Virus record (IMG/VR): IMGVR_UViG_3300031867_000276
Coordinates: 1-35,477 of that record
Length of the DNA: 35,477 bases
Strand: one strand, 5' to 3'
From: a virus
Position numbers and translations under genes: made by a program. This document shows, in pieces, positions 1,264 to 35,477 of the stretch; positions within the stretch are counted from its first letter, which is position 1; every line of letters starts with the position of its first letter. The notes beneath the pieces are model-generated. The model ran no database searches and had not been told where the DNA came from. It was given only the letters and a program-made list of their open reading frames with translations.

Positions 1264-1510
1264 CAAACCAACTATGACGAATGAACAGCGGAAAACCCTG
1301 CAGCGGTATGAAAAGCACCTCCACAGCGCTTTTTATGCCGACTACGTTGTAGGACTACCAGCAAATGACGTTCGTGTCTTATTCGGCGTTTTCAACAAAA
1401 TTTACTCCACCACCGAAACAAACTACAGTTGCAATTTCTGTGTGTTGAGAGTGTTGAAAGGCTTGGCGAGACTGTATTACAAATCTGACAGCAATAAAAA
1501 GACGAAATGA
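1256..1510 (+). CDS. Hypothetical protein
   Basis: 84-aa ORF, overlapping and coupled with both neighbours. Confidence 0.55.
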   Translation: MDNKPTMTNEQRKTLQRYEKHLHSAFYADYVVGLPANDVRVLFGVFNKIYSTTETNYSCNFCVLRVLKGLARLYYKSDSNKKTK

Positions 1511-5612: not shown

Positions 5613-7685
5613 ATGGCACAAACCGAAGTCGAAATACTTAATATAGACACCTCGCAAAGCGTTCGCTCAATTGCAGACCTGAAAGCAGAGATCAAAGCAC
5701 TGAAAGACCAACTCGTTACACTGGAAGCAGGAACGGAAGAGTACAACGAAGTACTGGTTAAGGTTGCAAACAAGCAGCACGAATTGGTTGAAATTACCGA
5801 ACAGGTCAAACAATCCAGTCAGGATTTTGGCGACCGTATGGCAAATGTTGCAGGTGCGATTGGCGGTGTGAGTGGTGCAGTGCAGACAGTGACAGGTGCA
5901 TTGTCTTTGATGGGCGTGGAAATTGGCGATGATGCCAAACTGATGAAAACGCTTGTATCTGCAATGTCAATCACATCGGGCATTACTGCCATTGATAAAG
6001 GTATGAAAGCGGTTAAGGCTCTGACTGTATCGTTAAAAGCATCTACCGCAGCGGCAGGCGGACTCGGAAAGGCTCTGAAAGCACTTGCAATGTCAAATCC
6101 ATTTACAGCGATACTGGCAGGTGTTGTCGCTGTTACCGCTGCGGTTGTCGCTTTAACCAAAGCCATAGGAAACGCACGTGAAGCACAAGCGAGGTTGCAA
6201 CAGGCTTCCGACAACAAACAGATGTTGGATGCGTACAACGAGTTGGAAACAAAACTCAATACGCAGGTCGAAATGATGAAGATTGACGGGCAAACCGATT
6301 ATCAAGTGTTTCTACAAAAGAAAGCCAATGCAAAAGCACTGCGTGACCAAGCGGAACAGAACCTCAATCATTATCTTAAAATTATTCAAACAGGCTCACG
6401 TGCAGAGAGAAAAGCAGCCGAAGAATTTTATCAGATATGGAGTGAAGCATACGACAAAAGGGCAGCGGACTATCAGGCATTGATAGACCAAACAGCCATC
6501 GAAGAACACCGAGAAGAAAAGCGCAGGGAAGCAGAACAGGAAGCAGCAAGACGAGCCCGACAGCAAAGGGCGCAAGCAGCGGCATCGGCAGCAGCGGCAC
6601 AAAAGAAAGCGGAACTCGCACAGATAGCAAAGATTGAGCGTGATGCGCAAATTGCTTTGATGGATGCAGAGGACGCAGAACTGGCGAAACTCAAAGACAC
6701 CTACGATGAGCAGGTCAGATTGTACCAAAAGCGAGGACAGGATATTTCCACACTTACAGCAAAGTATGAAAAGGAACGTCAGGCGATAATCGACAAGTAT
6801 ATTGCTGAACGTGTGCAGAAAGACATTGAAGCAGCCGAGAAAGAAGAAGAAAGAGCAGCGAATAAGTCTGCGGCATTGGTCAGACTATTGGAAAAACAGA
6901 TGGCAGACGAACAAGCCATTTATGACCGGATGCAGATTGAAACCGACAACCTACTGGCAAAGGATTACACCGAAGAAAAGGTCGAGGAAGCGGAAGCAAT
7001 GATGGAATCCGCTTATATGGCATTGCTACAACATAGAATTGAACTCGAACAGCAACTGTTACAGAGTGAAGCACTGACAGACGAGGACAGAGAAGAGTTG
7101 CAGGATTCCTTACTACAGCATCAAAAGGAACGTGCCGAATTGAGTGTGCAGATTGAACAGAAAGCATTGGAAAAACGCAAAGCACTGTATCAGAATTACG
7201 CAAAGGCAGTCAATTCGATTACGTCTTCTATAACATCAATCCTCGGCACTATTGGCGGCACACTCGAAGAGGGTAGCAAACAATGGAAAGCGGTAAAGAT
7301 TGCGGAAGCAACCATTTCAACCATTCAGGGCGGTGTCGCTGCATATATGGGTATGGTTGAAAGCATACCGGGTCCGGCAGGTTTGATTGCAGGTGCGGTT
7401 GCAGCAGCGGCAACGGTGGCGGCAGGTATGGCGGAAGTGGCAAAGATACGCAACACTGAAATATCTACTGGCGGTAGCAGTGGAACAGCATCCACTACAA
7501 CGGCACTCGGAAGCGTCAAACCTACAGCGGTACGGGTTGCAGCAACACAGGTCACAAACACCCGACAAACATCTACAACATCCGACATCGAGGAATTGCC
7601 CGATACAAAGGTGTACGTGTTGGAATCCGATATTACCAACGCACAAAGGAATGTAAAAACAACTGTCGAACAGGCAACATTTTAA
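5613..7685 (+). CDS. Tape-measure-like protein (long coiled coil with Gly/Ala-rich hydrophobic segments)
   Basis: 690 aa with extended heptad-like E/K/A/Q-rich regions and GAIGGVSGAVQTVTGAL / IAGAVAAAATVAAGMAEV segments. Preceded by the chaperone-like pair. An internal ejection protein is an alternative. Confidence 0.55.
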   Translation: MAQTEVEILNIDTSQSVRSIADLKAEIKALKDQLVTLEAGTEEYNEVLVKVANKQHELVEITEQVKQSSQDFGDRMANVAGAIGGVSGAVQTVTGALSLMGVEIGDDAKLMKTLVSAMSITSGITAIDKGMKAVKALTVSLKASTAAAGGLGKALKALAMSNPFTAILAGVVAVTAAVVALTKAIGNAREAQARLQQASDNKQMLDAYNELETKLNTQVEMMKIDGQTDYQVFLQKKANAKALRDQAEQNLNHYLKIIQTGSRAERKAAEEFYQIWSEAYDKRAADYQALIDQTAIEEHREEKRREAEQEAARRARQQRAQAAASAAAAQKKAELAQIAKIERDAQIALMDAEDAELAKLKDTYDEQVRLYQKRGQDISTLTAKYEKERQAIIDKYIAERVQKDIEAAEKEEERAANKSAALVRLLEKQMADEQAIYDRMQIETDNLLAKDYTEEKVEEAEAMMESAYMALLQHRIELEQQLLQSEALTDEDREELQDSLLQHQKERAELSVQIEQKALEKRKALYQNYAKAVNSITSSITSILGTIGGTLEEGSKQWKAVKIAEATISTIQGGVAAYMGMVESIPGPAGLIAGAVAAAATVAAGMAEVAKIRNTEISTGGSSGTASTTTALGSVKPTAVRVAATQVTNTRQTSTTSDIEELPDTKVYVLESDITNAQRNVKTTVEQATF

Positions 7686-8990: not shown

Positions 8991-9541
8991 CAGACCGTTC
9001 AATTGACTATGGCGAGGTATCTGACAGCACGAAACTATACCAGTTAATCAAAGACCTGTTAGACGCTTACAGAGCCAATATTGAAAAAGCACAAGCAGTT
9101 GCAAGTGGCGAACTGATTAATGCAGCGACTTATAGTGCGAACAAATGGGAATTGCGTTGGAAAGGTCAAACCCTGCAACTGGTTTTGTTGCTGCCCGAAC
9201 AATGGCAATACATTGAAGAAGGACGATCGCCAACGCAACGTAGCGAGGGCGGTGTTCTTTATCCTGCAATATTGGAATGGGTAAAGGTCAAAAGGATTGT
9301 GCCACGACCCGACCCAAAGACACACAAAGTGCCAAAGATTGAATCGGTGGCGTGGGCGATAACAAAGAAAATCCACAAGCGAGGATATTTCGACCCTGAC
9401 CATCACGGAAAGCACCCATTAAGGACTGCGATTGAAGAAACGGACATTGTAGCGGCTTTCGCAACCGCACTGGCAGACCAGTTCAACCGCATTATAAAAG
9501 TCGAACTGGCGGAGAATTTGACCAAAATAACTCGCCATTAA
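8987..9541 (+). CDS. Hypothetical structural-module protein
   Basis: 184-aa ORF, ATGA-coupled to the upstream gene. Confidence 0.6.
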   Translation: MTDRSIDYGEVSDSTKLYQLIKDLLDAYRANIEKAQAVASGELINAATYSANKWELRWKGQTLQLVLLLPEQWQYIEEGRSPTQRSEGGVLYPAILEWVKVKRIVPRPDPKTHKVPKIESVAWAITKKIHKRGYFDPDHHGKHPLRTAIEETDIVAAFATALADQFNRIIKVELAENLTKITRH

Positions 9542-9561
9542 TGTACACAAACCACAAATCA

Positions 9562-9570
9562 CGATAATTT
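9562..9570 (+). promoter_or_regulatory. CGATAATTT motif copy
   Basis: Exact 9-mer in an intergenic gap, 21 nt upstream of ATG 9591. Confidence 0.5.
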
Positions 9571-9590
9571 AATATCAAAAATCACGAAAA

Positions 9591-10412
9591 ATGCCGAATT
9601 ACTACCATATAAAGGTTCGCAGAGATACCGCAGCAAATTGGGCGGCTAACAATCCGACCCCTGCTTATGGCGAAATCTGTCAGGAAACAGACACCAAACG
9701 TAAAAAGATTGGCGATGGTGCTACTGCGTACAACTCATTACCATACGACCAACCGGGCAACGCTACCACATCCTCGGCAGGTCTTATGTCTGCAGCGGAC
9801 AAACAAAAGTTGGACGGTATTGATATGTCGCAATATGCGAAACTCAACTCTCCGCTTTTCACAGGCACACCAACAGCACCGACCAAAAGCGGTTACGATG
9901 TCAGTAAACAACTTGCGACAGATGCCTACGTGCTGCATCAAATAGCAGCGGCATCGGCATCGGTAATGGTGCGTTGCATCTTTTCATTGTCTGCGAATAC
10001 TGTTCAGAATATCATTAACAACATTTCCGAATGTGTCTTTATGGCTGTCAATGGGAAAGCGGTTGCAATAGAGAAGTCACAAAAACTCGTTGCAGGAATC
10101 AACTATGTTGATTTTGTTTTCAATACTGGTTCGCAGATTGCCTGTAGCAAGATTCCCGACGATGCCTTTGGCGGCATTTCCAATCTGACCGCTGCGGTAT
10201 TGCCTGAAAGAATAATCGAGGTTGGCATTAAAGCCTTTAGTGGCTGTCCGGAAATGAATATGGTGTATTCGCTGTCGCCATTCGCAAAGATAGATGGCAC
10301 AACGTTTCAGGGGACAAACTTACTAAAAGCATACGTACACAAAGCATTTGCCACGTACTATCAGGCGGATGCGGAATGGACTGCTTTAAATTGTCAATTT
10401 ATAACATTCTAA
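9591..10412 (+). CDS. Tail fibre protein with C-terminal leucine-rich-repeat-like domain
   Basis: The N-terminal VRRDTAANWAANNPTPAYGEICQETDTKRKKIGDGATAYNSLPY resembles the Mtd/HylP-type N-terminal fibre domain. GLMSAADKQKLDGI and SPLFTGTPTAPT are fibre motifs. The C-terminus shows a BspA-like LRR pattern. Confidence 0.7.
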   Translation: MPNYYHIKVRRDTAANWAANNPTPAYGEICQETDTKRKKIGDGATAYNSLPYDQPGNATTSSAGLMSAADKQKLDGIDMSQYAKLNSPLFTGTPTAPTKSGYDVSKQLATDAYVLHQIAAASASVMVRCIFSLSANTVQNIINNISECVFMAVNGKAVAIEKSQKLVAGINYVDFVFNTGSQIACSKIPDDAFGGISNLTAAVLPERIIEVGIKAFSGCPEMNMVYSLSPFAKIDGTTFQGTNLLKAYVHKAFATYYQADAEWTALNCQFITF

Positions 10413-10719: not shown

Positions 10720-10956
10720 ATGAGTTTGATTGTTGGAATACTCAATGCGATAGGACGCAAACGCAACAGTGGAGGCAGTGGCGGTGGTTTTGTGCCTGAC
10801 GATGACAACTACCTGACCACTGAAAGCAGCCGACCAATATTGACAGAGGGCGGCGACTATCTGTTGTGGGAAGCGGCAACAATCCTACTGTCTGAAGATG
10901 GTTTTGGACTACTGACTGAAAATTATAATCAATTAATTTGCGAACAATATGAGTAA
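10720..10956 (+). CDS. Hypothetical protein
   Basis: 78-aa co-directional ORF. Confidence 0.5.
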   Translation: MSLIVGILNAIGRKRNSGGSGGGFVPDDDNYLTTESSRPILTEGGDYLLWEAATILLSEDGFGLLTENYNQLICEQYE

Positions 10957-12550
10957 AAAGAAAATTTCCGAACTCCCTGTGTTTAATGGCAATGCAGCGG
11001 AGTATGTCATTGTCGGTTACGATACTACCGATATGACAACAAAGAAATGTAATTTTGCCACGCTGATTGCCAACAGTGGCGACCCACGTATCAAACCATT
11101 GACAGCCGAGAATCTTGAAGTTGGCGATATGCTGTTCTTTGACCGTGCCGAAGAAAAATACTGCATTGTTAAGAAAGCAGCCATCGCAGCAGTTTTGGCA
11201 GACTACAACCAAACTCGCTACGAAACCAACTACGACACCTACATTGGCACATTCAATGGTGTTGCACACTTTGTCGCTTTGGACGATGCAGTTGCAAGCA
11301 ACGCACTCTACAGCGATGATGTTGCTGCGACATCCTGTTTCTATCGTATCGAGATAGACAACACGCAGGCTGGCAGTATTACCCTGTCGGCAACAAGTGG
11401 CAATGCCAGTGTCGCAGAAACGACCATCACTTGGGGTGCAGGCGACACGATGTCAAGCATTGTCGCACAGTTCACGGCACTCAATACCACGTACATAACC
11501 TTTGCTGCACTTGACGACCAAAGCGGTGTAGGACTGGAGATTGGCGGTTATGGCAATAACACCCTCACGACATCGGGATTGTCAAACTGCACCGTCATTG
11601 ACTGTTCAGGACTGGCAATGCTGTCGAGCCATAACAGTACCGCTGTTGTGGGCGGCACTTATGTACCCGGCAACGCCTATACCTTTATCGGTCAAGGTGT
11701 ACACCATAATTTCAGAGGTGCTTCCGCAAACTCCATCCTCGGTGCAACCGTCAAGGCTCCGAATACAGTCTGTATTGCCAATGATGGTTTCAACTACAGT
11801 TACCGAGTCGGAATCAACTTTGCCAAATTCAAATCGTGGGCATCCGTCAGTGGCGATGATACATACTATGATGATGGCGAGGGCGGTCAGGATGATTCTG
11901 TAGGTCACGTGATGCGTGAATCGAGATTTAACACCGAGGTACGTGACTACACAGGCAGCGATGCACACCACCTCGGAATGAAAGACTACTATACACACCT
12001 GTTGAATGACCAGTCGGGCGAATATGCCGAACTGCGTGAAGAGTTTATTTCTCGCTATGGCAATATGACCTCGATGTATGACGGTTATTTGATGGCACAC
12101 TGTATGGATGTGGCTGCCGCCAGTGGCACAACCAATGACCTGCGCAATTATGGTATGACGCAGACAGCAGCGAAAGCAGACTGCCTGAACGTCAATTACA
12201 ATTACAAGTTCATTCCTGCATATCCGCCTGAATACAACGCACAGCATTATGGCGTGACTTCCGAGGGATTTGTGCCGGGTAAATACTACCATCCCGAACC
12301 GGGTGACATTGGTTTGATGTTCCGTGACGACATTATGCCTGTCATTAATGACAATATAACAGAAGTCAGAGCGGCATTGCTACAGAACGTTGGCACACCT
12401 CTTACAAACTCACTGTACAGAGGTTCGTGCGCTGACTGCGGCGGCGGCAGCTCGTGGTTCTTCGACGGCAGCGGCGGCTGTTTCAGCAGCGACGGCCGCT
12501 ACGGCGGTTACTTCCGCTGTCGTCCTGTCCTCGCTTTAAGCCTTTCATAA
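10949..12550 (+). CDS. DGR target protein 1: tail-fibre / receptor-binding-like protein with C-terminal variable (C-type-lectin/DUF1566-like) region
   Basis: The last ~40 aa (CADCGGGSSWFFDGSGGCFSSDGRYGGYFRCRPVL) are encoded by VR1. Lies in the tail-fibre neighbourhood, directly upstream of avd-TR-RT. Confidence 0.85.
   Translation: MSKKKISELPVFNGNAAEYVIVGYDTTDMTTKKCNFATLIANSGDPRIKPLTAENLEVGDMLFFDRAEEKYCIVKKAAIAAVLADYNQTRYETNYDTYIGTFNGVAHFVALDDAVASNALYSDDVAATSCFYRIEIDNTQAGSITLSATSGNASVAETTITWGAGDTMSSIVAQFTALNTTYITFAALDDQSGVGLEIGGYGNNTLTTSGLSNCTVIDCSGLAMLSSHNSTAVVGGTYVPGNAYTFIGQGVHHNFRGASANSILGATVKAPNTVCIANDGFNYSYRVGINFAKFKSWASVSGDDTYYDDGEGGQDDSVGHVMRESRFNTEVRDYTGSDAHHLGMKDYYTHLLNDQSGEYAELREEFISRYGNMTSMYDGYLMAHCMDVAAASGTTNDLRNYGMTQTAAKADCLNVNYNYKFIPAYPPEYNAQHYGVTSEGFVPGKYYHPEPGDIGLMFRDDIMPVINDNITEVRAALLQNVGTPLTNSLYRGSCADCGGGSSWFFDGSGGCFSSDGRYGGYFRCRPVLALSLS
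12417..12534 (+). repeat. DGR variable repeat VR1
   Basis: Gap-free 118-nt alignment to TR. There are 19 internal mismatches (17 A>G, 2 A>T), all at TR adenines. The terminal 23 nt are identical. Confidence 0.9.
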
Positions 12551-12569
12551 GTTTGAATGTTTAATCTTT

Positions 12570-12597
12570 GCCGCTCCATCCCGTAGGGTGGGGCGGC
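12570..12597 (+). other. GC-rich hairpin downstream of VR1 (candidate DGR target-recognition structure or terminator)
   Basis: gccgctccatccc / gggtggggcggc forms a 12-bp stem with one bulge and one G-U pair and a 3-nt loop. It lies about 35 nt after the VR1 end. Confidence 0.55.
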
Positions 12598-12620
12598 ATT
12601 GAAACAAACAATGAATCATT

Positions 12621-13064
12621 ATGCCGAGAAAACGTCCGAAATCACTCGATGCACCTGTGGTTATGATTGCCCGAAGACTTGAAGCGTGGGCGTATCTGCG
12701 TTGCGACCAGTGGAAAAAGCAATACAGATATACCCTCGTGAATGATTTTCGCAGTCATATCACAGCGGCAAAGAATGAAATCATACGTGGTTTTGAATTG
12801 CACAACAGATTCAAAGACGAAAAACTATACCATTACAACCTCGCACAAACCGAATTGGCATTGACCGAGAGTTGTATGGATATAATGATAATGGACGAAT
12901 TCTGCATAATGAGTGAAAAGGAATGGGCGCAGGCTGCAATGCAGATTGATGAAATAAGAATGGGATTGTCGAGGCTCGCTAACTCGCTAACTAAAGGCGT
13001 TGGTGGGTCGGAATCTTCGAACTGCGGAACGGAGAGCGTGTCTGCCAATTATAAGGATGTCTAA
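12621..13064 (+). CDS. avd: DGR accessory variability determinant (Avd-like)
   Basis: 147-aa basic, predicted helical protein in the canonical position between the target gene and TR. The pattern resembles four-helix-bundle Avd proteins. Confidence 0.7.
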   Translation: MPRKRPKSLDAPVVMIARRLEAWAYLRCDQWKKQYRYTLVNDFRSHITAAKNEIIRGFELHNRFKDEKLYHYNLAQTELALTESCMDIMIMDEFCIMSEKEWAQAAMQIDEIRMGLSRLANSLTKGVGGSESSNCGTESVSANYKDV

Positions 13065-13078
13065 CTATTCAGGTAAAT

Positions 13079-14485
13079 ATGGATAGTCAAATCAACATAG
13101 ACAAGCAAAGAGGTTCGTGCGCTGACTACAACGGCAACAACTCGTGGTACTTCAACGGCAACAACGGCTGTTTCAACAACAACAACCGCTACAACGGTAA
13201 CTTCCGCTGTCGTCCTGTCCTCGACTATGGCTGGTATGACAATGCGAAACTCGACACATATCCCATCACACTTGCAGACTGGTACATTATCAGTCGTGAA
13301 ACTGCAAAGGGCAAAGCGAACAAACCCTGCTACGTGTTCTTTATCCTGAATCGGATAAACGAGTTGGTACAACTTGCACACGAGGTTGGAAATTTTGAGG
13401 TTATGCCGACCGAAAGCACTGCACATATTATCTTTGAACCGAGAGTGCGAGAGATTGTATGTGCTGTTGCATCGAAACGAGTGTTGCAAACTTACTACAT
13501 CCGCAGTCTGCAACCATACCTCGAAAGCGTTCTGTACCATCCTGACAGTTACAGTTGCAGACGTGGCAAAGGCGGTCTGCGTGCCGTGATGCAGTTGCAG
13601 GATTATATCTTTGAGCAGTCAAACGGCTATACTTCCGATTTGTGGCTTGCGAAAGTGGATATACAGGCGTTCTTTATGTCGCTCAACTGCTTTCAGGTGT
13701 GCGAGGTCGTAACAAACTTCATCAACCGCAGAATGTCAGACCATCCACAGCGAGAGTTGCTTGTCTATCTGACACGCATAATCTATCTTGCAGCAACAAA
13801 AGACCATTTGAGGGATATGGCGCACCCTGCGGAACGAGTGTTGCTCGACCCTACCAAATCGCTTTACAACCGTCCGCACTATACAGGTGTACCCATTGGC
13901 GATTGGACGAGCCAAACGGCAGGATTAATCATTACTACGTTTCCGCTGCGGTATCTTGAATCTTTGGGATATAAGTTTATCCATTACACGGACGATACTG
14001 TTGTACTGGTCAGGGATAAGCGGCAATGGCTCGAAGATGTTGAACGACTTGCGAGATACTACAAAGAAAATTTTGGTTTGACACTGCACCCGAAGAAACG
14101 CTATCTGCAACACTACAGCAAGGGCGTTGAATGTTTGGGGTACAAAGTCAGATTTAACCGCATACTTCCGAGCAACAGAATCTATCATAATTTGACGTGG
14201 TATTTGGAGCGTACTATCCGCAAGGCTGAATCCCAACCGAGTTTTGCCATCAGTCACGCCGAGCAGATACAATCAACATTGAACAGTTACCTCGGTTTCC
14301 TGCGTTGGTGCAACGGTTACAGGCTCCGTGAAAAGGTCTGTAAAATGGTTTCTGATTCAGTACTCGGAACGGTGTTGAAACCATCCGAGGACTGTAAGAA
14401 AATAACCATCCGCAGGGAATACACAAAGAAAACATACTATCGAAACGAATATAAAACACTGAAACAACAATTAAAAGCAGCATAA
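13079..14485 (+). CDS. DGR reverse transcriptase (annotated ORF includes TR at its 5' end)
   Basis: PIGDWTSQ (the I/LGxxxSQ DGR-RT signature), YTDD catalytic motif and VDIQAFFMSL. The true start is uncertain because no in-frame ATG lies between TR and the conserved N-terminal RT region. Confidence 0.9.
   Translation: MDSQINIDKQRGSCADYNGNNSWYFNGNNGCFNNNNRYNGNFRCRPVLDYGWYDNAKLDTYPITLADWYIISRETAKGKANKPCYVFFILNRINELVQLAHEVGNFEVMPTESTAHIIFEPRVREIVCAVASKRVLQTYYIRSLQPYLESVLYHPDSYSCRRGKGGLRAVMQLQDYIFEQSNGYTSDLWLAKVDIQAFFMSLNCFQVCEVVTNFINRRMSDHPQRELLVYLTRIIYLAATKDHLRDMAHPAERVLLDPTKSLYNRPHYTGVPIGDWTSQTAGLIITTFPLRYLESLGYKFIHYTDDTVVLVRDKRQWLEDVERLARYYKENFGLTLHPKKRYLQHYSKGVECLGYKVRFNRILPSNRIYHNLTWYLERTIRKAESQPSFAISHAEQIQSTLNSYLGFLRWCNGYRLREKVCKMVSDSVLGTVLKPSEDCKKITIRREYTKKTYYRNEYKTLKQQLKAA
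13107..13224 (+). repeat. DGR template repeat (TR)
   Basis: Adenine-rich master copy with 12 AAC and 3 TAC codons and 28 adenines between 13121 and 13200. It matches VR1, VR2 and VR3 at all non-adenine positions. Confidence 0.9.
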
Positions 14486-24990: not shown

Positions 24991-25199
24991 GCGGTTTCGG
25001 TCACAAATCGGTCACATATTTCGCAATCGTCTGAATTACAATTCTAATTGTACCCCCTGGGGGAGTGTTTCGATTGTCACTTTTTGAGTACTTTTCGGCA
25101 CAAAACAAATCATTTCAGAGTGTTGTGCGCTGATGAACGGCTTATGGTTAGTTGTAGGCGATGCAAATTCTGTCATATTGATACAAATATTCGGTCACA
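24991..25199. other. Candidate attP region
   Basis: Only sizeable non-coding gap next to int. It has three TCGGTCACA direct repeats (24997, 25008, 25191), the inverted repeat tacaatt-ct-aattgta (25037-25052) and ccccc-t-ggggg (25053-25063). Confidence 0.4.
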
Positions 25200-26439
25200 T
25201 TTCGGACACACTGTCTGCAAAGGTGTCGAACATTGACATTTTCTTTTTCTTTACATCGTCAGCAATGGCGATGTATGGTTTTAGTGTCTTATGGTCTTTG
25301 TGACCAGTCCAACGCATAACGACCTCTGACGCTATATCCAGTGAAAGAGCCGTCACAACGAATGTCTTGCGTCCGCAATGGGATGTAAAAACCTGCCATT
25401 TCGGTACTGATTCCTCGTGGCGTTCAGAACGCACCCACCAAACACGGCGTACAGGCTCGTCAATCTTTGCCATCCTGCCGAGTTCTTTCAGATAGATGTT
25501 TGTTTTCTGATTGCTGACAACAGGCAATGCCGGGCAATCTGCATCATTGCCGCAGTTGTACTTTTCAAGTATGGCTGCGGTTACTTTGTTTAATTCAATG
25601 TTGATGGCGGCAGATGTCTTTTTCGTAACCACACGAAAATGTTCTTTGTGGATGTCCGACCGCCGCAGTTTGGCAACGTCAGAATACCGCAGACCGCTAA
25701 AGCAGCAAAACAGGAATATGTCACGCACCCTGTCAAGGTGTGGCAATGCCGACAAATCCAGTTCCATAATGCGATGCAGTTCGTCACGGGTAAGATAGAC
25801 AACCTCGTTTTCTGATTCAGACCGATAGCGAGTATAGAATCCTGTTGCGTCAGTCTGCTCGCACAACCCTCGTTCAATGGCTGTCCGCAAAGTCCATCGC
25901 AGTTGTTTCAGAAACTTTTGTACTGTGGCGTTGATAAGTCCACGTTCAAAGCAGAAATCCATAAATGCCTGTATATCGGCTTTCGTAAAGTCTGCGAGTG
26001 TCTGATATGGTCGCCAGTCTGATATGCGGTTACGCAGTGTAATATAATTGCGACGTGTGTTGTAACTCCAACCATCCCCGAGGGTGCTATCTTTCAAAAA
26101 CAAGTCCATTACGCCCACGAGCAGCAAAGATTCTTTTGCCTGTTCTTTGGTGTGGATGTCTCCGAGTGCAGATTTGACCTCGGCAGGGGTAACGATGCGA
26201 TGTTCAAGATGTGCAGCATCAAAGAGCCTGTCGATTGCTGCGGTCTTTTCCTGTATTTCTTTCATCGCCCTGCGATGGGTGCGGAGTGGCAACCCAGTAC
26301 GAGAATCCCACTCGCTATCTTTTGCCGAGGTGTCGAGATAGTGAGTGACACATTGACCGTTCCACGATACACGCATCCTGATTGCCTTTGTACCGTCCGT
26401 GTGTGGTCTGTTGAGGGTGTAACGGACGCTGTATTTCAT
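25195..26439 (-). CDS. int: Tyrosine recombinase / phage integrase
   Basis: 414 aa with LRYSDVAKLR, HCGRKTF and WTGHKDHKTLKPY (R..H.R..H..Y catalytic pattern) and an N-terminal SAM-like domain. Confidence 0.9.
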   Translation of the reverse strand: MKYSVRYTLNRPHTDGTKAIRMRVSWNGQCVTHYLDTSAKDSEWDSRTGLPLRTHRRAMKEIQEKTAAIDRLFDAAHLEHRIVTPAEVKSALGDIHTKEQAKESLLLVGVMDLFLKDSTLGDGWSYNTRRNYITLRNRISDWRPYQTLADFTKADIQAFMDFCFERGLINATVQKFLKQLRWTLRTAIERGLCEQTDATGFYTRYRSESENEVVYLTRDELHRIMELDLSALPHLDRVRDIFLFCCFSGLRYSDVAKLRRSDIHKEHFRVVTKKTSAAINIELNKVTAAILEKYNCGNDADCPALPVVSNQKTNIYLKELGRMAKIDEPVRRVWWVRSERHEESVPKWQVFTSHCGRKTFVVTALSLDIASEVVMRWTGHKDHKTLKPYIAIADDVKKKKMSMFDTFADSVSEM

Positions 26440-26847: not shown

Positions 26848-27216
26848 TTATCCGACATCTTTTTTCTCGACAGCCTGCGGCTGTTGGTAACTGTCAAGGA
26901 TGCGAACGAGCCTGTCAATCGTTGCATCCTTTTTCTTCGATTCCAACTCCAGTTCCGCAATCCGTTCTTTGAGTTGTGCGACCTCTGTATTGGAGTTTGC
27001 CGAAAGCATAGTACCCTCGCCAGTAACAAGCCACGAGCGACTGACTTCCGGGAATACAGACAGGATGGTTTCGATTACTGCTTTCCCTACATTTTCATTT
27101 CCACACAAACCACTCGTGTATGTGTGTGATTTTCCGAGCATATCTGCGAACTTTTTGTTGTTGTTTTCGCAAAAATACGCCCGAATTTCTGAAATTCTTT
27201 GGTTGATTTCTGCCAT
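26848..27216 (-). CDS. CI-like repressor (HTH)
   Basis: FADMLGKSHTYTSGLCG ... SRSWLVTGEGTM matches the phage CI repressor HTH pattern (WL.TGEG.M). It has a coiled-coil C-terminus and faces the early operon divergently. Confidence 0.75.
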   Translation of the reverse strand: MAEINQRISEIRAYFCENNNKKFADMLGKSHTYTSGLCGNENVGKAVIETILSVFPEVSRSWLVTGEGTMLSANSNTEVAQLKERIAELELESKKKDATIDRLVRILDSYQQPQAVEKKDVG

Positions 27217-27401
27217 TTTTCGAACTATTTAAGGATTATACTGAATTTATTTTAAAATTTATTTACCTATATTTCAGCAAAATACCGATTTTGTACGAAA
27301 ATTTTAAAAAAAAAGTTTGGTACATTCAGAAATTTGCTTACTTTTGTACTCGATTTTGAAACCAATGCAAAAATAAGTAAAAAATTTAAAACAGCAGAAT
27401 T
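27217..27401. promoter_or_regulatory. Divergent lysogeny/early control region
   Basis: AT-rich 185 nt between the repressor and the first early gene. Contains TTT(T)GTAC/TTTGGTAC repeats at 27289, 27316 and 27342, and a TACTTTTG match (27339-27346) to the Bacteroides -7 consensus TAnnTTTG. Confidence 0.6.
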
Positions 27402-27635
27402 ATGACAAATTTGAACTACACAACAAAGGAAATCAACAGCAACTTCAAGATTAAAGTTGCAGGTGTTGATGAGAATGGAAACCACATTAACACACTGGTT
27501 GGTGTTAGTGGTGCAATCTCCCTGATAGGTATTGATATATTCAACAGACTGCTCGACCGTGCTTTCTACAGCACCGGGGATTGCTGCTACTGCAAACTCC
27601 GCAGGGGTATCAAATTCAGTTTCTACGCTTATTAA
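27402..27635 (+). CDS. First early gene, hypothetical
   Basis: 77-aa ORF. Confidence 0.55.
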   Translation: MTNLNYTTKEINSNFKIKVAGVDENGNHINTLVGVSGAISLIGIDIFNRLLDRAFYSTGDCCYCKLRRGIKFSFYAY

Positions 27636-27658: not shown

Positions 27659-27859
27659 ATGAAAACAACAATCAAAGTTTATGTTCCGAGTTGCAGTGAA
27701 TGGTTTACAGCCGCAACAATCAACTTTCTCCCAATGCCACAAATGCTTGACATCATAGTTGATAAGATTGTGGATGCTTACTGCGAAGATTCAATGGCTG
27801 GAGTATCAAAAGCCAAAGTTATTGTTGATGGGAAAGTCTATAAAACCATCGAGTATTAA
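27659..27859 (+). CDS. Hypothetical protein
   Basis: 66-aa ORF. Confidence 0.5.
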   Translation: MKTTIKVYVPSCSEWFTAATINFLPMPQMLDIIVDKIVDAYCEDSMAGVSKAKVIVDGKVYKTIEY

Positions 27860-27906
27860 CCCATAAACACTGCATCAATATGAAAACAAAGAGGATGCAA
27901 TACAAC

Positions 27907-27960
27907 AGGGGTGGCATAGCAGCACGGCAGACCGTTCAGGTGCGAATCCTGACACTCCAC
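27907..27960 (+). other. Degenerate tRNA-like remnant (T-arm plus acceptor-like stem only)
   Basis: T-arm tcagg-tgcgaat-cctga. The 3' cactcc pairs with the 5' ggggtg. Only 22 nt lie between them, so there is no D arm or anticodon arm. Confidence 0.3.
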
Positions 27961-27991
27961 AACTTTATTAACCAATCAAAAATCAAAGACA

Positions 27992-28435
27992 ATGAACGAA
28001 AATCAAATCAACAACGAGCCTGTAAGCGTCCACAGAGACGAGAACGGCAACCCTGATGGGGTATTGGTGCAGACACTTGACGAACGCTTTGTAATCGAGT
28101 TGCACGACATTGACGATGGTAAAGACGATTTCAGTTTTGACACCGCACAAGAGCGACTGAAAGAACTCGGTAAAACCACATTCAACAAAAAGCAGGGTTT
28201 GATACTGGCTGCATACATCGAGGAAATCAACACAGCGCTTGTCGAAGCAGGTGGCGAACCCTTTGCCAAAGACTTGTACACATCCGGGGAACTGTACAAA
28301 CCTGTTGGGTGCGCTGACTACTACGGCAACGCCTCGTGGTGCTTCCACGGCGCCGGCGGCTGTTTCGACTACGACGACCGCTACGACGGTGACTTCCGCT
28401 GTCGTCCTGTCCTCGCTTTGCCTTTACAAAGTTAA
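27992..28435 (+). CDS. DGR target protein 2: small (147 aa) variable protein, paralog of 31726..32166
   Basis: The C-terminal CADYYGNASWCFHGAGGCFDYDDRYDGDFRCRPVL is encoded by VR2. No signal peptide or TM segment is visible. Confidence 0.85.
   Translation: MNENQINNEPVSVHRDENGNPDGVLVQTLDERFVIELHDIDDGKDDFSFDTAQERLKELGKTTFNKKQGLILAAYIEEINTALVEAGGEPFAKDLYTSGELYKPVGCADYYGNASWCFHGAGGCFDYDDRYDGDFRCRPVLALPLQS
28309..28416 (+). repeat. DGR variable repeat VR2
   Basis: Gap-free 108-nt alignment to TR 13117-13224. There are 15 mismatches (10 A>G, 3 A>C, 2 A>T), all at TR adenines. Confidence 0.9.
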
Positions 28436-28448
28436 ATAGTTAAACGTT

Positions 28449-28472
28449 GCAGCCTGCTTTCGGGCAGGCTGC
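28449..28472 (+). other. GC-rich hairpin downstream of VR2
   Basis: gcagcctgc / gcaggctgc forms a perfect 9-bp stem with a 6-nt loop, about 32 nt after the VR2 end. Confidence 0.6.
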
Positions 28473-28489
28473 ATTAAAACAAATCAGCA

Positions 28490-29865: not shown

Positions 29866-30741
29866 ATGAGTAATCAAACAAGTAACCTGCCAGCGTTGCA
29901 GGAAAGTAAGAACGAGTTCGCAATGGCTCTTACCGATGCCATCCAACTCGACATCGTAAACAATGTGGCAGGGGCGTTCGATGCCGCTATCATAGTGGCA
30001 CGGCTCGAAGCAGTACTGACCGATGAAGTTATGGAAGCGGTATTTATGCCGTTGATGAACAAAAAAATCGGTTTCCTGACTGACCACGACCCGAACCGCC
30101 CTCGCAATGGTGTAACCCCGAAACCGTACCCAGTCAGTGTTGTACGTACCTGTATCATTGACGCAGCGAGTATGGGTTTGCGTCCAACAGGCAACCAGTT
30201 CAACATCATTGCCGAAAGAATGTACCCAACGAAAGAGGGTTTTTCGGCACTGTTGAAAAACTACAGTGTGCAGCACGATTTGAAGTACATCTTTCAATTC
30301 GACAGTGGCGCACAACCTCAATCAACGCCCGAATGGGAATATATACCCTGCGTCATTAACTACCAGTTGAACGGAGAGACGCAGAAACCGTTCAAGTATG
30401 TTGCATCGGTCAATAAGAAAAACGGTGCCAATGTCGACCAAATGAGGGGCAAAGCAGAAAGAAAATGCAAAAGGGCGTTTTATGAGTATCTGACCGGGAA
30501 CGATCTCGGCGATGCAGATGCCGACACGGTGGATGTGACCTATGCCGAAGTGAAACCCACAGCGACCGCCAAGAGCGCAGCACAGAGGGCAAAGGAAGCA
30601 ATGGAAAAGGCGAGAGCCAAACGTGAAGCAGCCGAGGAAAAAACGACCGCAGCGGCAGGAATCCAACCCAACATCAACTTTGATGAAATGACGGACGAGG
30701 AAATTGAACGTCTGACCAACGGAGAGGGGGTTGAGCAATGA
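29866..30741 (+). CDS. recT: RecT-like single-strand annealing protein
   Basis: IIDAASMGLRPTGNQFNIIAERMYPTKEGF pattern. Paired with the downstream exonuclease. Confidence 0.6.
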   Translation: MSNQTSNLPALQESKNEFAMALTDAIQLDIVNNVAGAFDAAIIVARLEAVLTDEVMEAVFMPLMNKKIGFLTDHDPNRPRNGVTPKPYPVSVVRTCIIDAASMGLRPTGNQFNIIAERMYPTKEGFSALLKNYSVQHDLKYIFQFDSGAQPQSTPEWEYIPCVINYQLNGETQKPFKYVASVNKKNGANVDQMRGKAERKCKRAFYEYLTGNDLGDADADTVDVTYAEVKPTATAKSAAQRAKEAMEKARAKREAAEEKTTAAAGIQPNINFDEMTDEEIERLTNGEGVEQ

Positions 30742-31715
30742 AAGTCATACGGTACGATTGCAAGACCAATCAGGAGTGGCGAGCAGAACGCTCGCACTCC
30801 ATTGGTGCAAGTTCAATTGGAATCCTGATTGGTGCAAACCAGTACACAACCCCGATGGAACTGGCTGTAAAGATGCGTAAAGAACTGGAAGGCGATTTCG
30901 ACTACACGCAGACACTGGCAATGATGAGAGGACACGCCTACGAGCAGGGAGTTGCAGACCTGTTCAGTTGGAAAACAGGCAAAGAGGTAATCAAATCGAG
31001 CAGTCGTGAGTTTCTTTTGAGACGTGACGACATACCATTTATGCACGCCAGTCCGGACAGAACGTATTGGATTGATGCAGATGGCACAAAGCACGGAAAA
31101 AACGCTGCAGCGAACAAAGGTGTATTGGAGTGCAAAACCACTCGCAGACTTATCGACCCTGACGATTTGCCGCTATCGTGGCAGTTTCAGTTACAGGTGC
31201 AGATGGGTATTGGCGGATTCAGTGAGGGTTTTATTGCGTGGGATGTACTGACCTCGACAGATGGTTTCGGTTACAAGTATTTCCAGTTTGACGAGGACTT
31301 GTTTAATACCGCTGTGGAGTTGTGCAGGGATTTTTGGGAAAACACCATTGTTGGCGGCAACGACCCCGAACCTGTCAATGCTGCCGACCTGCTACGAAAA
31401 TACCCTAATAGCATTGAGGGTAAGACCATCACGGCAGACGGGGAAACGAAACAACTTGTTTCCGAGATTAAAGAAATGCAATCCACAGCCAAAGAACTTG
31501 ACAACGAGATTGACGAGTTGAAAAAGAAACTCGTTATGAAGTTTACGGATGAGGAAGCGATAATCGATGATGAGACGGGCAAACCCATTGTGACCTACAA
31601 AACAAAGTCAGGTGCAATGCGTGTGGATTCCAAGAAACTCAAAGCAGACTATCCCGATGTATATGCTGCGGTCGCCAAGCAGGGAGAAAGCACACGGACA
31701 TTATTAATCAAATAA
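30738..31715 (+). CDS. YqaJ/lambda-exonuclease-like PD-(D/E)xK recombination exonuclease
   Basis: EWRAERSHSIGASSIG ... GHAYE ... ASPDR ... LECKT motifs. Confidence 0.8.
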   Translation: MKVIRYDCKTNQEWRAERSHSIGASSIGILIGANQYTTPMELAVKMRKELEGDFDYTQTLAMMRGHAYEQGVADLFSWKTGKEVIKSSSREFLLRRDDIPFMHASPDRTYWIDADGTKHGKNAAANKGVLECKTTRRLIDPDDLPLSWQFQLQVQMGIGGFSEGFIAWDVLTSTDGFGYKYFQFDEDLFNTAVELCRDFWENTIVGGNDPEPVNAADLLRKYPNSIEGKTITADGETKQLVSEIKEMQSTAKELDNEIDELKKKLVMKFTDEEAIIDDETGKPIVTYKTKSGAMRVDSKKLKADYPDVYAAVAKQGESTRTLLIK

Positions 31716-31725
31716 ATCAGGAATT

Positions 31726-32166
31726 ATGAACAACAATAATCAGGATGCAGTAATCAGCATCATAACAGATAACAACAACCATAAATGGGTTAGGGTTGAA
31801 GCATTGGGCGAAGACTTCTGCATTGCCACAGAGGACTTGAATAGCCGAGACGATATGACCTATGATGAAGCGATGAAAGAGTTGAAAGAAGTTGGATTGG
31901 ACACTTTCAACCGCAAGCAAGGATTCATCATTGCCATCTACATTGAGACAATCAATGCCAAATTAAAAGAAGCAGGCGGAAAGGAATTTGAGCGTGACTG
32001 GTATACAAGTAATGAATTGTGGAAGCCTGTCGGGTGCGCTGACTACAGCGACGGCTACTACTCGTGGTTCTTCTACGGCGGCAGCGGCTGTTTCAACTAC
32101 GACGCCCGCTGCGGCGGTTACTTCCGCTGTCGTCCTGTCCTCGCTTACGCCTCCTTAAAGTTTTAA
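31726..32166 (+). CDS. DGR target protein 3: small (146 aa) variable protein, paralog of 27992..28435
   Basis: Shares TFN(K/R)KQG.I.A.YIE.IN..L.EAGG..F....YTS.EL.KPVGCADY with target 2. The C-terminus is encoded by VR3. Confidence 0.85.
   Translation: MNNNNQDAVISIITDNNNHKWVRVEALGEDFCIATEDLNSRDDMTYDEAMKELKEVGLDTFNRKQGFIIAIYIETINAKLKEAGGKEFERDWYTSNELWKPVGCADYSDGYYSWFFYGGSGCFNYDARCGGYFRCRPVLAYASLKF
32034..32144 (+). repeat. DGR variable repeat VR3 (one codon longer than TR)
   Basis: 111 nt versus 108 nt of TR 13117-13224. There are 16 substitutions, all at TR adenines, plus a 3-nt in-frame insertion in the tac-aac-ggc-aac-aac segment. Confidence 0.85.
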
Positions 32167-32183: not shown

Positions 32184-32402
32184 ATGGCAACAGGTCAAAT
32201 CAGCAACAAACAAAAGGTGGTCCGGGTGTATTGCTCGGACTGCCGCTGGTTTGTCCGTGACACCGAGGGAAACAGTTTTAAGTCAGGCACAAATCCGAGA
32301 TACTATTTTATGGGCGAATGTTCAAAGGGGTTGCACCCTGATACTATCATAAAGCAGTTCGCCGACAAACCAAGAATCTGTCAAACCTATAGTGAGAAAT
32401 GA
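32184..32402 (+). CDS. Small Cys-containing protein
   Basis: ORF 32064..32402 trimmed to ATG 32184 (MATGQISNKQK...), because the upstream part overlaps VR3 out of frame. Confidence 0.5.
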   Translation: MATGQISNKQKVVRVYCSDCRWFVRDTEGNSFKSGTNPRYYFMGECSKGLHPDTIIKQFADKPRICQTYSEK

Positions 32403-33277
32403 GATTTTTCTTCGATACAAACGAGAGTGACCGACTGGGTTTGTCAGGGGTTGATGAAAAGATATACTTTTTCATCAAATCCTACGGCAACGAAGGTGTA
32501 AATATGGGTATAAAGAAAATGTCGGAAAAGTTTATTAAAGAGAGTATATCGACAGTCCAAAGAGGCTTAAACAGACTGATTAATCGTGGTTTGGTTATAT
32601 GCTCAAAATCCGACTACATAATCAATGGTGGAATGGTAAATCATTACTGCGTACCGCAGGTCAAAATGAACGAGGGGGATAGTTCAAAACGAACAAAGGG
32701 TACTATCAAAATGAACGAGGGGGATAGTTCAAAACGAACAAAGGGTACTATCAAAATGAACGAGGGGGATAGTTCAAAACGAACAAAGGGTACTATCAAA
32801 ATGAACGAGGGTACACCTTATAATAATACAAACAATATACAAACAAACTCTACAAACAATATACAAAGGGGTAACGCCACCGCAGAAATTATTTCGATTT
32901 CAGAATTGGTTTTGATTAAGTGGAACGAGCATTACACACAGCATTTCAATACTGGATATGTACCCGACTACCGCAGTCTGACCAACGACAAAGATTTGAT
33001 TTCCGATGCGGTCAAAAATAAGATGCAGGATTTCAAAAAAAATCCGGACAACGTAGATGAAGCAGCCGAATTCATTCAGGCAATGTTTGAAGCAATGTTT
33101 TCCGCTGCCGACAAATGGCAAAAGGAACACTGGACGCTGCACACTGTAGCAACACAATTCAATCAATTATACAACGCAATAATCAACAGAAAGAATGGAA
33201 ACAACAACAGCAATAACAACGGTGGAATCACGGACGATTACATTGCAAGAAAGATGCGAGAGGCTGGATTGCTATAA
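32399..33277 (+). CDS. Replication initiator-like protein (winged-helix N-terminus, internal iterons)
   Basis: ISTVQRGLNRLINRGLVI is an HTH-like segment. Three perfect 45-bp repeats encode (KMNEGDSSKRTKGTI)x3. Lies in the replication module. Confidence 0.55.
   Translation: MRFFFDTNESDRLGLSGVDEKIYFFIKSYGNEGVNMGIKKMSEKFIKESISTVQRGLNRLINRGLVICSKSDYIINGGMVNHYCVPQVKMNEGDSSKRTKGTIKMNEGDSSKRTKGTIKMNEGDSSKRTKGTIKMNEGTPYNNTNNIQTNSTNNIQRGNATAEIISISELVLIKWNEHYTQHFNTGYVPDYRSLTNDKDLISDAVKNKMQDFKKNPDNVDEAAEFIQAMFEAMFSAADKWQKEHWTLHTVATQFNQLYNAIINRKNGNNNSNNNGGITDDYIARKMREAGLL
32661..32811 (+). repeat. Tandem 45-bp direct repeats (3 perfect copies plus a 16-nt partial): candidate origin iterons
   Basis: The unit tcaaaatgaacgagggggatagttcaaaacgaacaaagggtacta occurs at 32661, 32706 and 32751, with a partial copy at 32796. 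Confidence 0.9.
32827..32867 (+). repeat. Two 17-bp direct repeats (tacaaacaatatacaaa) in an AT-rich stretch next to the iterons
   Basis: Copies at 32827-32843 and 32851-32867. Confidence 0.8.
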
Positions 33278-34962: not shown

Positions 34963-35346
34963 ATGAAAAGTAAAATCTACATTGCAGGTAAAATCACAGG
35001 CGACCCGGAATACAGGCACAAATTCAAGTGTGCCGCCTACGAGTTGAGGGAGTGCCGCCGTAGTTGCAGTGCAAACAAGCAGTGCAGCGGTTGTGTGTTC
35101 TACGATAGGGATTATCTAACATCCTGTAGAATCAGCAGCGTATTTCCTGACCAACTCGAAATTGTCAATCCTGCCGAGTTTGATGTAAAAGGTCGTTGCT
35201 ACTGGCGTATTATGCTGTACTGCATCCGTCAAGTAATTAAATGCGACTACGTTTTTATGCTGAAAGACTGGCAGGATAGCAAAGGCGCACGGAAAGAACA
35301 CAGGGTCGCCAAATGGTTTCACAAAAACATAATCTACCAACAATGA
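34963..35346 (+). CDS. DUF4406 / nucleoside 2-deoxyribosyltransferase-like protein with a Cys-rich insert
   Basis: KIYIAGKITGD ... VNPAEF ... CDYVFMLKDWQDSKGARKEHRVA matches the DUF4406 pattern. An extra ECRRSCSANKQCSGCVFYDRDYLTSC segment is present. Confidence 0.6.
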   Translation: MKSKIYIAGKITGDPEYRHKFKCAAYELRECRRSCSANKQCSGCVFYDRDYLTSCRISSVFPDQLEIVNPAEFDVKGRCYWRIMLYCIRQVIKCDYVFMLKDWQDSKGARKEHRVAKWFHKNIIYQQ

Positions 35347-35477
35347 AAACAATAAAGTATTTATTGGTTACTGCCGACCACAGGGAACTATATTTCGACC
35401 ATTGGTTGGATATGATTTCGGCAATGGCAACAATGATTGATAAAGGCGAGACGGTCTGTGTCAAAAAACTGGATGAA
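35343..35477 (+). CDS. Hypothetical small protein spanning the circular junction (3' end continues at 128..157; total about 53 aa, MKTIKYLLVTADHRELYF...)
   Basis: The ATG at 35343 overlaps the TGA of the preceding gene (ATGA). The frame stays open through the repeat and stops at TGA 155-157 of the duplicated start. It is absent from the ORF track because it is split by the window edge. Confidence 0.5.
   Translation, partial: MKTIKYLLVTADHRELYFDHWLDMISAMATMIDKGETVCVKKLDE
35351..35477. repeat. Terminal direct repeat, copy 2 (identical to 1..127)
   Basis: Read directly. Either an assembly overlap of a circular molecule or a short terminal redundancy. Confidence 0.95.

Follow-up and report, generated by a model that had tools for sequence, protein, structure and literature searches.

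The viral record IMGVR_UViG_3300031867_000276 (35,477 nt, analysed over its full length and called the window below) contains a diversity-generating retroelement (DGR). A small open reading frame (ORF) far away from it, at 27992-28435 on the plus strand (+), had been proposed to be a second target of this element on the basis of the letters of the sequence. Since bases 1-127 are exactly repeated as a terminal duplication of 127 nt at 35351-35477, the window is a circular assembly, and the complete genome measures about 35,350 bp. It belongs to a temperate phage of gut Bacteroidales with a single DGR. The ORF, designated T2, was confirmed with its predicted length of 147 aa, and its homologs begin at the same Met. 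The analyses described here firmly support T2 as a genuine, naturally diversified remote DGR target, which encodes a minimal protein with a lectin fold.

The variable repeat of T2 and the DGR cassette

A repeat search and self-BLAST agreed on four repeat copies in the window, one template repeat (TR) and three variable repeats (VR1, VR2, and VR3). VR2, the repeat in T2, is 107 nt long (28309-28415, +) and encodes residues 107-141 of the 147 residues. It aligns without gaps to TR (13117-13223, +; 28 adenines) over all 107 nt with 15 differences, 10 A>G, 3 A>C, and 2 A>T. All 15 are located at TR adenines, and the 79 non-A positions are unchanged; a restriction of 15 mismatches to 28 A among 107 positions by chance has a probability of about 5e-11. 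Mismatches confined to TR adenines are the pattern by which a DGR variable repeat is recognized. In the frame of the T2 ORF, TR contains 13 AAC, 2 TAC, and 1 GAC codons. In-frame AAC codons are the usual design of DGRs, and stop codons are avoided in this way. Placed at the 3' end of the ORF and with AAC in frame, VR2 is arranged as in a DGR target gene. About 15 AAC-derived positions are available, and the design allows approximately 1.2e17 sequences. The C-terminus of T2 reads CADYYGNASWCFHGAGGCFDYDDRYDGDFRCRPVL, followed by ALPLQS and the stop codon.

The gap-free match and the restriction of all differences to TR adenines bear out the original prediction of a second genuine target. The 15 differences had been assigned to the intervals 13117-13224 and 28309-28416. 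Their number is correct for the true block of 107 nt, but these ends include one additional base (13224/28416), the first one past the block, which is also A>C and would raise the count within the longer intervals to 16. The A-free 3' end of 23 nt was found as described (13201-13223 equals 28393-28415), and the distance of 15 kb to TR was measured as 15.2 kb in one direction and, because the assembly is circular, as 20.2 kb in the other.

T1, the cassette-adjacent target of 533 aa (10949-12550, +), is located in the region of the virion genes. It has a tail-fibre-like gene upstream and carries VR1 (12419-12533, +) at the end of its ORF; VR1 shows 19-20 mismatches to TR, every one at A. The following gene specifies an Avd-like accessory protein (12621-13064, +), which matched phrog_3206, 'Avd protein of DGR', weakly (1.8e-4) and 23S_rRNA_IVP also weakly. 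The DGR reverse transcriptase (RT; 13079-14485, +; RVT_1, 5.7e-14) is intact, both the IGxxxSQ motif (IGDWTSQ) and the YxDD motif (YTDD) being present. The genome thus contains a cognate RT, an adjoining TR, and, with a weak match, an Avd-type gene, the components by which a DGR is identified. RT homologs numbered 427. TR lies in frame within the 5' end of the RT ORF, and the RT would therefore start with an invariant 'proto-VR' peptide. This arrangement, 13079-13223 in the window, was seen likewise in L023 (3001-3145), and no in-frame ATG was found right after TR in the approximately 40 nt inspected by eye. With identities down to about 40%, RT homologs (about 468 aa) span about 100% of the query; therefore, the location of TR inside the RT gene appears to be conserved.

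Diversification of VR2 in natural populations

Database searches with T2 yielded 55 homologs. Among the six closest sequences, which are 85-100% identical, variation was detected at 15 of 16 A-bearing codons and at 13 of 131 others (Fisher p = 4.6e-12). When cluster members were added, the VRs of the 11 proteins of T2's own lineage were all distinct on a near-constant scaffold. An invariant VR2 across relatives, which had been named beforehand as an argument against the proposal, was thus not encountered, as VR2 differs in all 11 natural variants. The comparison with L001, a prophage in a Rikenellaceae metagenome-assembled genome, is most direct. The flanks are 96-98% identical; outside the VR, 13 of 337 nt are changed, compared to 19 of 107 inside, 18 of the latter at TR-A positions. 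Changes at TR-A codons are therefore found at the population level, and VR2 is in use in nature.

The ratio of non-synonymous to synonymous substitution rates (dN/dS) of the scaffold is about 0.3 for T2 versus L001 and 0.18 for the two paralogs of L011, and in the VR it exceeds 5. Judged from these values, the T2 scaffold is under purifying selection, as expected for a functional protein. Between the VRs of T2 and of its paralog T3, the third target of the window, 0 synonymous and 13 non-synonymous differences were counted, while dS of the scaffold is saturated. The VRs of L011a and L011b likewise show zero synonymous differences despite saturated scaffold dS. Since VR dS is zero and scaffold dS saturated, both VRs must be re-copied repeatedly from one TR.

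Fold and family of the T2 protein

T2 had been described as a very small protein without signal peptide or transmembrane segment, and hydropathy analysis agrees with this description. No hydrophobic segment was detected at the N-terminus or internally, the top Kyte-Doolittle window of 19 residues reaching 1.03. The protein is acidic (28 D/E versus 13 K/R) and has four cysteines. Direct scans of T2 and T3 against Pfam, PHROG, and the defence library PADLOC gave no matches. By an exhaustive profile search, however, a family of at least 252 cluster representatives was defined (E<=1e-3; clusters at 50% identity), 132 of them at <=1e-10. Nearly all members have 100-280 aa with the domain in C-terminal position. 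Pfam Lcl_C (PF07603, formerly DUF1566) was matched by 26 of 91 diverse members (E<=0.01, best 6.2e-7), and the unannotated phrog_4245 by 25 of the 91. The curated threshold of PF07603 is not reached by T2, and the copy of L020 scored 21.6 bits versus a cutoff of 34.9. The family profile matches the C-terminal domain of Legionella Lcl (8q4e) at 3.4e-5 over the VR-equivalent strands; a profile of close homologs searched against PDB sequences yielded nothing meaningful.

A comparison of the T2 structure with lectin-type variable proteins had been suggested in the original prediction, and the fold was found. AlphaFold supplied with the 91 diverse sequences gave a model with a predicted local distance difference test score (pLDDT) of 92 and a predicted template modelling score (pTM) of 0.85. 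It replaced a first run based on 34 close homologs, in which pLDDT of the VR region was 66 and lectin matches were weak. All top Foldseek matches in PDB are C-type lectin (CLec) folds, with modest E-values of 3e-3 to 3e-2. The domain 8q4e superposes on T2 with a probability of 1.0, template modelling scores of 0.51/0.56, and a root mean square deviation of 3.2 A over 122 aligned columns. Further matches were the FGE-like domain of EgtB, the C-terminal domain of Bd2740, snake-venom lectins, CD23, and the carbohydrate recognition domain of the mannose receptor; in BFVD, small phage proteins annotated 'DUF1566 domain-containing' were matched. In the predicted model the features of a CLec/Lcl_C fold extend over the whole of T2, and according to this model the entire protein is one complete stand-alone C-type lectin domain of the Lcl_C/DUF1566-like kind. 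As 120-140 residues align to lectin domains, an N-terminal domain for attachment to the virion was not detected. Similarity to T1 is limited to the C-terminal half (48% identity over residues 76-146).

The lack of an export signal is common in the family. A hydrophobic segment was present in only four of 200 homologs scanned, leaving about 98% without export signal. These exceptions are P0054 with N-terminal transmembrane segments, P0096 with a lipoprotein signal, P0017 with a window in mid-protein, and P0117 with one near the C-terminus.

The third target T3

The original prediction did not mention the third target. T3 (31726-32166, +) specifies a T2 paralog of 146 aa with 52% identity and is located between the gene for a YqaJ/RecE-like exonuclease and an O-like replication gene. 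VR3 (about 32034-32143, +) has a private insertion of 3 nt (GAC) relative to TR and otherwise shows A-type mismatches only. A canonical hairpin was not found within approximately 35 nt downstream of VR3. The T3 ortholog P0041 has no GAC insertion, and the positional ortholog in L011 is followed by a perfect hairpin. In the window, homing may have ceased to cover the whole of the T3 copy.

One member of the T2 cluster, P0323, combines the T2 scaffold with a C-terminal tail of the T3 type (…PVLAYASLKF). This hybrid points to recombination between the T2 and T3 paralogs across the VR. In the relative L012, the two early-region VRs (2855-2962 and 6630-6737) are identical to each other, which indicates recent gene conversion or duplication between the small targets, or a collapse of the assembly. 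Taken together, the hybrid and the identical repeats indicate that exchange between copies occurs.

Candidate recognition elements downstream of the variable repeats

The GC-rich 3' end of VR2 (28393-28415, +), 23 nt without A, is identical in TR, VR1, VR2, and VR3. By analogy, this block would occupy the position of the (GC)14 element of BPP-1, at which the 3' end of the cDNA integrates. It is followed by a stretch (28416-28447, +) comprising the last six codons of T2, the stop codon, and a spacer. A four-way comparison of this stretch revealed a similar sequence, GCTT..GCCT..AAGTT, next to the three VRs, from which TR diverges (GACTATGG...). Since the flanks of the VRs are alike and that of TR is different, 28416-28447 is a candidate for a determinant of direction of the type known as initiation of mutagenic homing (IMH).

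A GC-rich inverted repeat (28448-28473) begins 32 nt past VR2. It consists of 10 Watson-Crick pairs and a TTCG loop closed by T.G (dG -20 kcal/mol), and a run of T residues does not follow. A hairpin is also present about 35 nt past VR1 (12569-12598, dG -27). Equivalent hairpins were detected 3' of the homologs in L005, L006, L011 (both copies), L012, and L019. Their stems covary with compensatory changes, and their loops are nearly constant (TTTCGG/TTTAGG). Homing in BPP-1 requires a hairpin with a GC-rich stem of 7-10 bp and a 4-nt GRNA loop, 4-34 bp from the VR (Guo et al. 2011). The VR2 hairpin agrees with these values in stem and distance, but has TTCG in place of GRNA. It is therefore considered a candidate for a DGR target hairpin or cruciform, for a transcription terminator, or for both.

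Genes surrounding T2

T2 had been placed in an early rightward operon near a divergent control region, away from the virion genes, and this placement is retained in the window as in all relatives with readable context. The integrase gene (25195-26439, minus strand, -; Phage_integrase, Arm-DNA-bind_5) is followed by a small gene on the minus strand and the divergent control region (26848-27635), for which phrog_32997 was given. This region comprises a repressor-like gene (26848-27216, -), an intergenic Bacteroides-type TAnnTTTG motif (27339-27346, +), and the first rightward gene (27402-27635, +). The gene at 26848-27216 had been called CI. It is divergent and repressor-like, but the CI assignment depends on weak PHROG matches (E about 1e-3). 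A second rightward gene (27659-27859, +) follows, and T2 comes third or fourth in this early operon. Directly upstream of T2 (27884-27981) lies the 3' remnant of a gene for 153 aa; L001, a near-identical prophage, has the intact gene (9508-9969). A tRNA suspected by eye within the remnant (27905-27960) was rejected, as ARAGORN and Rfam found nothing.

Downstream of T2, several small ORFs, a gene for 291 aa, the YqaJ/RecE-like exonuclease gene (30738-31715), and T3 are found, followed by the O-like replication gene (32399-33277) and genes for HU, DUF4406, ParB_N, and a TET-associated glycosyltransferase (TAGT). Terminase, portal, tail-fibre-like, and lysis genes are located elsewhere, away from T2. 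A target of the Mtd kind belongs to the tail or virion module beside the cassette; T2, in contrast, lies between the gene in Cro position and the recombination genes. A scan for sigma-70 promoters and terminators was uninformative, the phage being of Bacteroidales.

Two other features of this part of the genome were noted. Five iterons of alternately 22 and 23 nt with a period of 45 nt are located within the O-like gene (32661-32811) and probably constitute the replication origin. Genes for ParB_N-like, TAGT, and DUF4406/nucleoside 2-deoxyribosyltransferase-like proteins at 1507-3236 and 34963-35346, downstream of the early region, suggest a module for DNA modification with a role in anti-restriction.

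Genomic context in related phages

A survey of the context of homologs, as recommended along with the proposal, placed the family gene in an early-type region in all readable relatives. Its neighbours are early, recombination, replication, or DNA-modification genes, and a location in a virion module was not observed among relatives with readable context. L001, L011, and L012 share the layout of the window with integrase, small gene, repressor-like gene, and rightward operon. In L001 and L011, the family gene is the third after the repressor-like gene, and L011 has a second copy after DUF3127. In L012, the gene is located after AAA_24 and DUF3127 and before DUF7833, and in L002-L004 between DUF3853 and RecT/MBL-fold genes. 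L018 carries it after C5-methylase and YopX genes and before VRR-NUC and amidoligase/DAM-like genes, and L020 directly after the primase gene, near an N6-methylase gene. For L018, the frame-extended translation had no VR-like tail and only the gene neighbourhood was used. The distant members P0074 and P0096 are on contigs of less than 1 kb and were left out of the context reading. Among GenBank phages (INPHARED, August 2025), no match was obtained by megablast with 20 kb of the window or by tblastn with T2, and therefore no annotated relative could be used.

In loci taken with 10-kb flanks, the small gene and TR were never both included. The connection of the small gene to a DGR was made via the RT locus of the same contig and a scan for the exact pattern. 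In L012 (ERZ28653899 scaffold_1218, 33,395 bp), the RT is 66% identical, and the 5' end of its ORF again contains TR. The cassette-adjacent VR shows 15 A-type mismatches and 1 other to TR. The early-region VRs, in the first rightward gene and in a family member of 131 aa, have 18 A-type and 3 other mismatches each. The architecture of one structural and two early targets is therefore the same as in the window. L015 (IMGVR_UViG_3300037400_000851) also shows the layout of VR1, TR, and remote VR. The repeat at its TR position (ending at about 5249, reverse complement) is VR-like and has lost many adenines, AAC being changed to AGC, CGC, GGC, or CTC. As a consequence, mismatches to its two VRs are not A-specific. 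Mutagenised cDNA of this TR may have overwritten it, or the repeat may be part of a decaying DGR.

Discussion

The data are best combined by assuming that VR2 serves the single DGR as a functional target in trans and that T2 acts early in the cytoplasm as a hypervariable binder of a variable intracellular partner, an interpretation that we consider fairly probable. A non-structural, non-exported protein of the early operon is supported by consistent, albeit indirect evidence. We infer the details of homing, the early expression, the location in the cytoplasm, and the class of ligand as follows. By analogy to BPP-1, the RT would reverse-transcribe TR RNA and make errors at adenines, and the cDNA would then replace VR2. 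The 3' junction would be set in the shared A-free segment of 23 nt, probably aided by the VR-specific flank and the inverted repeat, and the 5' junction by homology between TR and VR. The approximately 15 AAC-derived positions would form the variable surface of T2. As T2 has no export signal and its gene precedes those for recombination and replication in the early operon, the protein is most likely cytoplasmic and present early after infection or induction. It would serve as a soluble binder of a variable host defence protein or of a competing mobile element and would not act as a tail receptor-binding protein. Small acidic proteins encoded early beside recombination or DNA-modification genes are typical of phage counter-defence, a function that T2 may by comparison have.

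Several observations weigh against this interpretation. The early-operon assignment depends on gene order and a motif that is not significant, with 35 matches genome-wide versus 28 expected. Location of a gene in the early region does not prevent packaging of its product, and both packaging into the virion and release upon lysis are compatible with the data. The rare relatives with transmembrane segments (P0054) or a lipoprotein signal (P0096) indicate that the domain can work outside the cytoplasm. No Pfam, PHROG, or PADLOC model matched T2, and hence these scans revealed no tie to a known anti-defence family; a survey from 2026 (preprint) reports no DGR targeting a known anti-defence protein. 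With regard to homing, the loops of the hairpins, TTCG after VR2 and CGTA after VR1, do not match the 5'-GRNA consensus (Guo et al. 2011), and the hairpin could simply act as a terminator. Finally, in clusters 2 and 3, the P0013 and P0019 lineages, the VR is almost invariant over 8-12 independent contigs. DGR activity on the small target is therefore not universal and appears to depend on the lineage.

Of the other explanations, an extracellular role should be considered most seriously, though it is judged unlikely. T2 could be a soluble adhesin or adaptor that docks on the virion, at tail fibre or capsid, or is released by lysis and binds glycans of the host surface or the gut as an accessory of receptor recognition. 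Annotated phage DGR targets are mostly tail proteins, the CLec fold is a ligand-binding module, T2 is homologous to the C-terminal half of T1, and two relatives have a membrane anchor or lipoprotein signal. An attachment domain at the N-terminus is nevertheless missing, the single CLec domain taking up the whole protein; nearly all scanned relatives are devoid of an export signal; and in the contexts read the gene occupies two fixed early-region positions and never a structural module. A role of T2 as a sensor of the prophage in superinfection exclusion or defence is improbable; its diversified lectin domain would then recognize incoming phages or other mobile elements on behalf of the lysogen. 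The gene is close to the lysogeny module, and DGR-diversified CLec domains are putative antigen sensors of bacterial conflict systems (PMC10907252). T2 is, however, transcribed away from the repressor-like gene in an operon of lytic direction, has no plus-strand promoter motif of its own between 27346 and 27992, and lacks an effector domain, and PADLOC was negative for T2 and its neighbours.

Two further possibilities deny the small proteins an important function of their own. T2 and T3 could be VR cassettes that store variable sequences and recombine with each other and with T1. The invariant 3' block and similar flank of all three VRs, the hybrid P0323, and the two identical early VRs in ERZ28653899 scaffold_1218 are in line with such a store. 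Yet the scaffold outside the VR is under purifying selection, is conserved across at least 252 clusters, and is predicted to fold confidently; moreover, a store is unnecessary because the DGR already diversifies T1 directly. For these reasons a store is given little credence. VR2 might also be a bystander, targeted merely because a duplicated lectin module kept its recognition sequences and diversified without adaptive role. The almost static VRs of clusters 2 and 3 and the loss of adenines from TR in L015 fit this explanation. The persistence of one structural and two early targets across RTs only 66% identical, intact ORFs with AAC codons in frame, and a hairpin kept by compensatory changes contradict it and make it very improbable.

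Hypermutation of a tail-region protein together with two tiny early lectin proteins suggests that targeted hypermutation is put to a use other than receptor binding. In an extended form of the interpretation of T2 as an intracellular binder, one DGR would retune the tail-region protein and at the same time hypermutate one or two bare lectin-fold binders, which would be produced from the immediate-early operon and act inside the cell in an antibody-like manner to neutralise or sense variable host defence proteins or rival mobile elements. This extension is put forward tentatively; if true, it would be the first case of counter-defence by programmed hypermutation in a virus. Phage DGRs are understood almost wholly as switches of receptor specificity, and surveys are blind to remote targets or leave targets unannotated. 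The pipeline of Roux et al. 2021 was stated to be unable to detect remote targets, and most DGR targets were left unannotated in the preprint survey of 2026. The locus described here defines a widespread and testable class of non-structural DGR targets that are hypervariable at DGR-programmed positions. With an intracellular ligand, targeted hypermutation would reach past adsorption into the arms race after entry, and scaffolds of 130-150 aa would be attractive as compact, natural binder libraries compatible with the cytoplasm. With an extracellular ligand, the family would show that receptor-related functions are encoded and timed with early genes.

Comparison with known DGR systems

The DGR of BPP-1 and its target Mtd share with the window the adenine-specific transfer from TR to VR, a VR at the 3' end that forms the variable face of a CLec fold, an AAC-rich TR, and Avd and RT as partners, as well as two GC-rich elements on the 3' side, an invariant block and, behind it, an inverted repeat (Guo et al. 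2011). Mtd is a multi-domain protein of the tail-fibre tip encoded directly upstream of the cassette, whereas T2 is a single domain of 147 aa encoded 15-20 kb away in the early operon. The window also deviates from BPP-1 in the hairpin loop of T2, which is off the GRNA consensus, and in the location of TR within the RT ORF.

Legionella Lcl, the C-terminal domain of which (8q4e) is the best-superposing solved structure among the PDB matches of T2, is a secreted collagen-like adhesin. It is not known to be diversified by a DGR. T2, in turn, differs from the Lcl_C family proper in reaching no Pfam threshold. Treponema denticola TvpA and Legionella LdtA represent cellular DGR targets, some of them remote, and resemble T2 in having the VR in a CLec fold and in remote targeting in trans by one DGR. 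As lipoproteins or secreted surface proteins, these targets carry export signals, and they are encoded on bacterial chromosomes; T2 is free of such a signal and specified by a phage gene. For Treponema, remote targets have been documented by Wu et al. 2018 (PMC5758913). Tentaclins (PMC10743442) provide an example of one phage DGR serving two CLec targets of different architecture. They consist of an N-terminal CLec domain and subsequent immunoglobulin-like domains and are proposed to bind receptors or mucosa, while T2 has no added domain and is located in the early region.

DGR-diversified putative antigen sensors of conflict systems are large and consist of several domains, NTPase or effector modules among them. 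Common to these sensors and T2 is the idea of a DGR that diversifies proteins of biological conflicts, and not only surface adhesins. The sensors of PMC10907252 come from multicellular bacteria and not from phages, and T2 has nothing but the binding domain and is encoded in a lytic operon of a phage.

A non-tail target of a phage DGR had been treated as unprecedented when T2 was proposed, which was overstated. Wu et al. 2018 (PMC5758913) described numerous prophage targets that are non-adjacent but separated from the RT by less than 50 kb, and for temperate phages of the gut, prophages of Bacteroidota, one sentence in Nature 2025 (PMC12629997) places second VRs at distal sites close to counter-defence genes. 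Due to these reports, distal phage targets have to be regarded as known. As with T2, the second VR is in the same prophage and tens of kb from the RT, and the surroundings reported agree with the gene contexts read in the present analysis. A description of the target protein with its fold, family, conserved positions, and lack of an export signal is not given in the two publications, and they differ from the present case, in which the distal targets number two per genome and the family is defined, with at least 252 clusters. What appears to be new, therefore, is the class of target: a bare lectin domain without export signal, encoded at two conserved early positions, often in two copies per genome, and distributed over at least 252 clusters.

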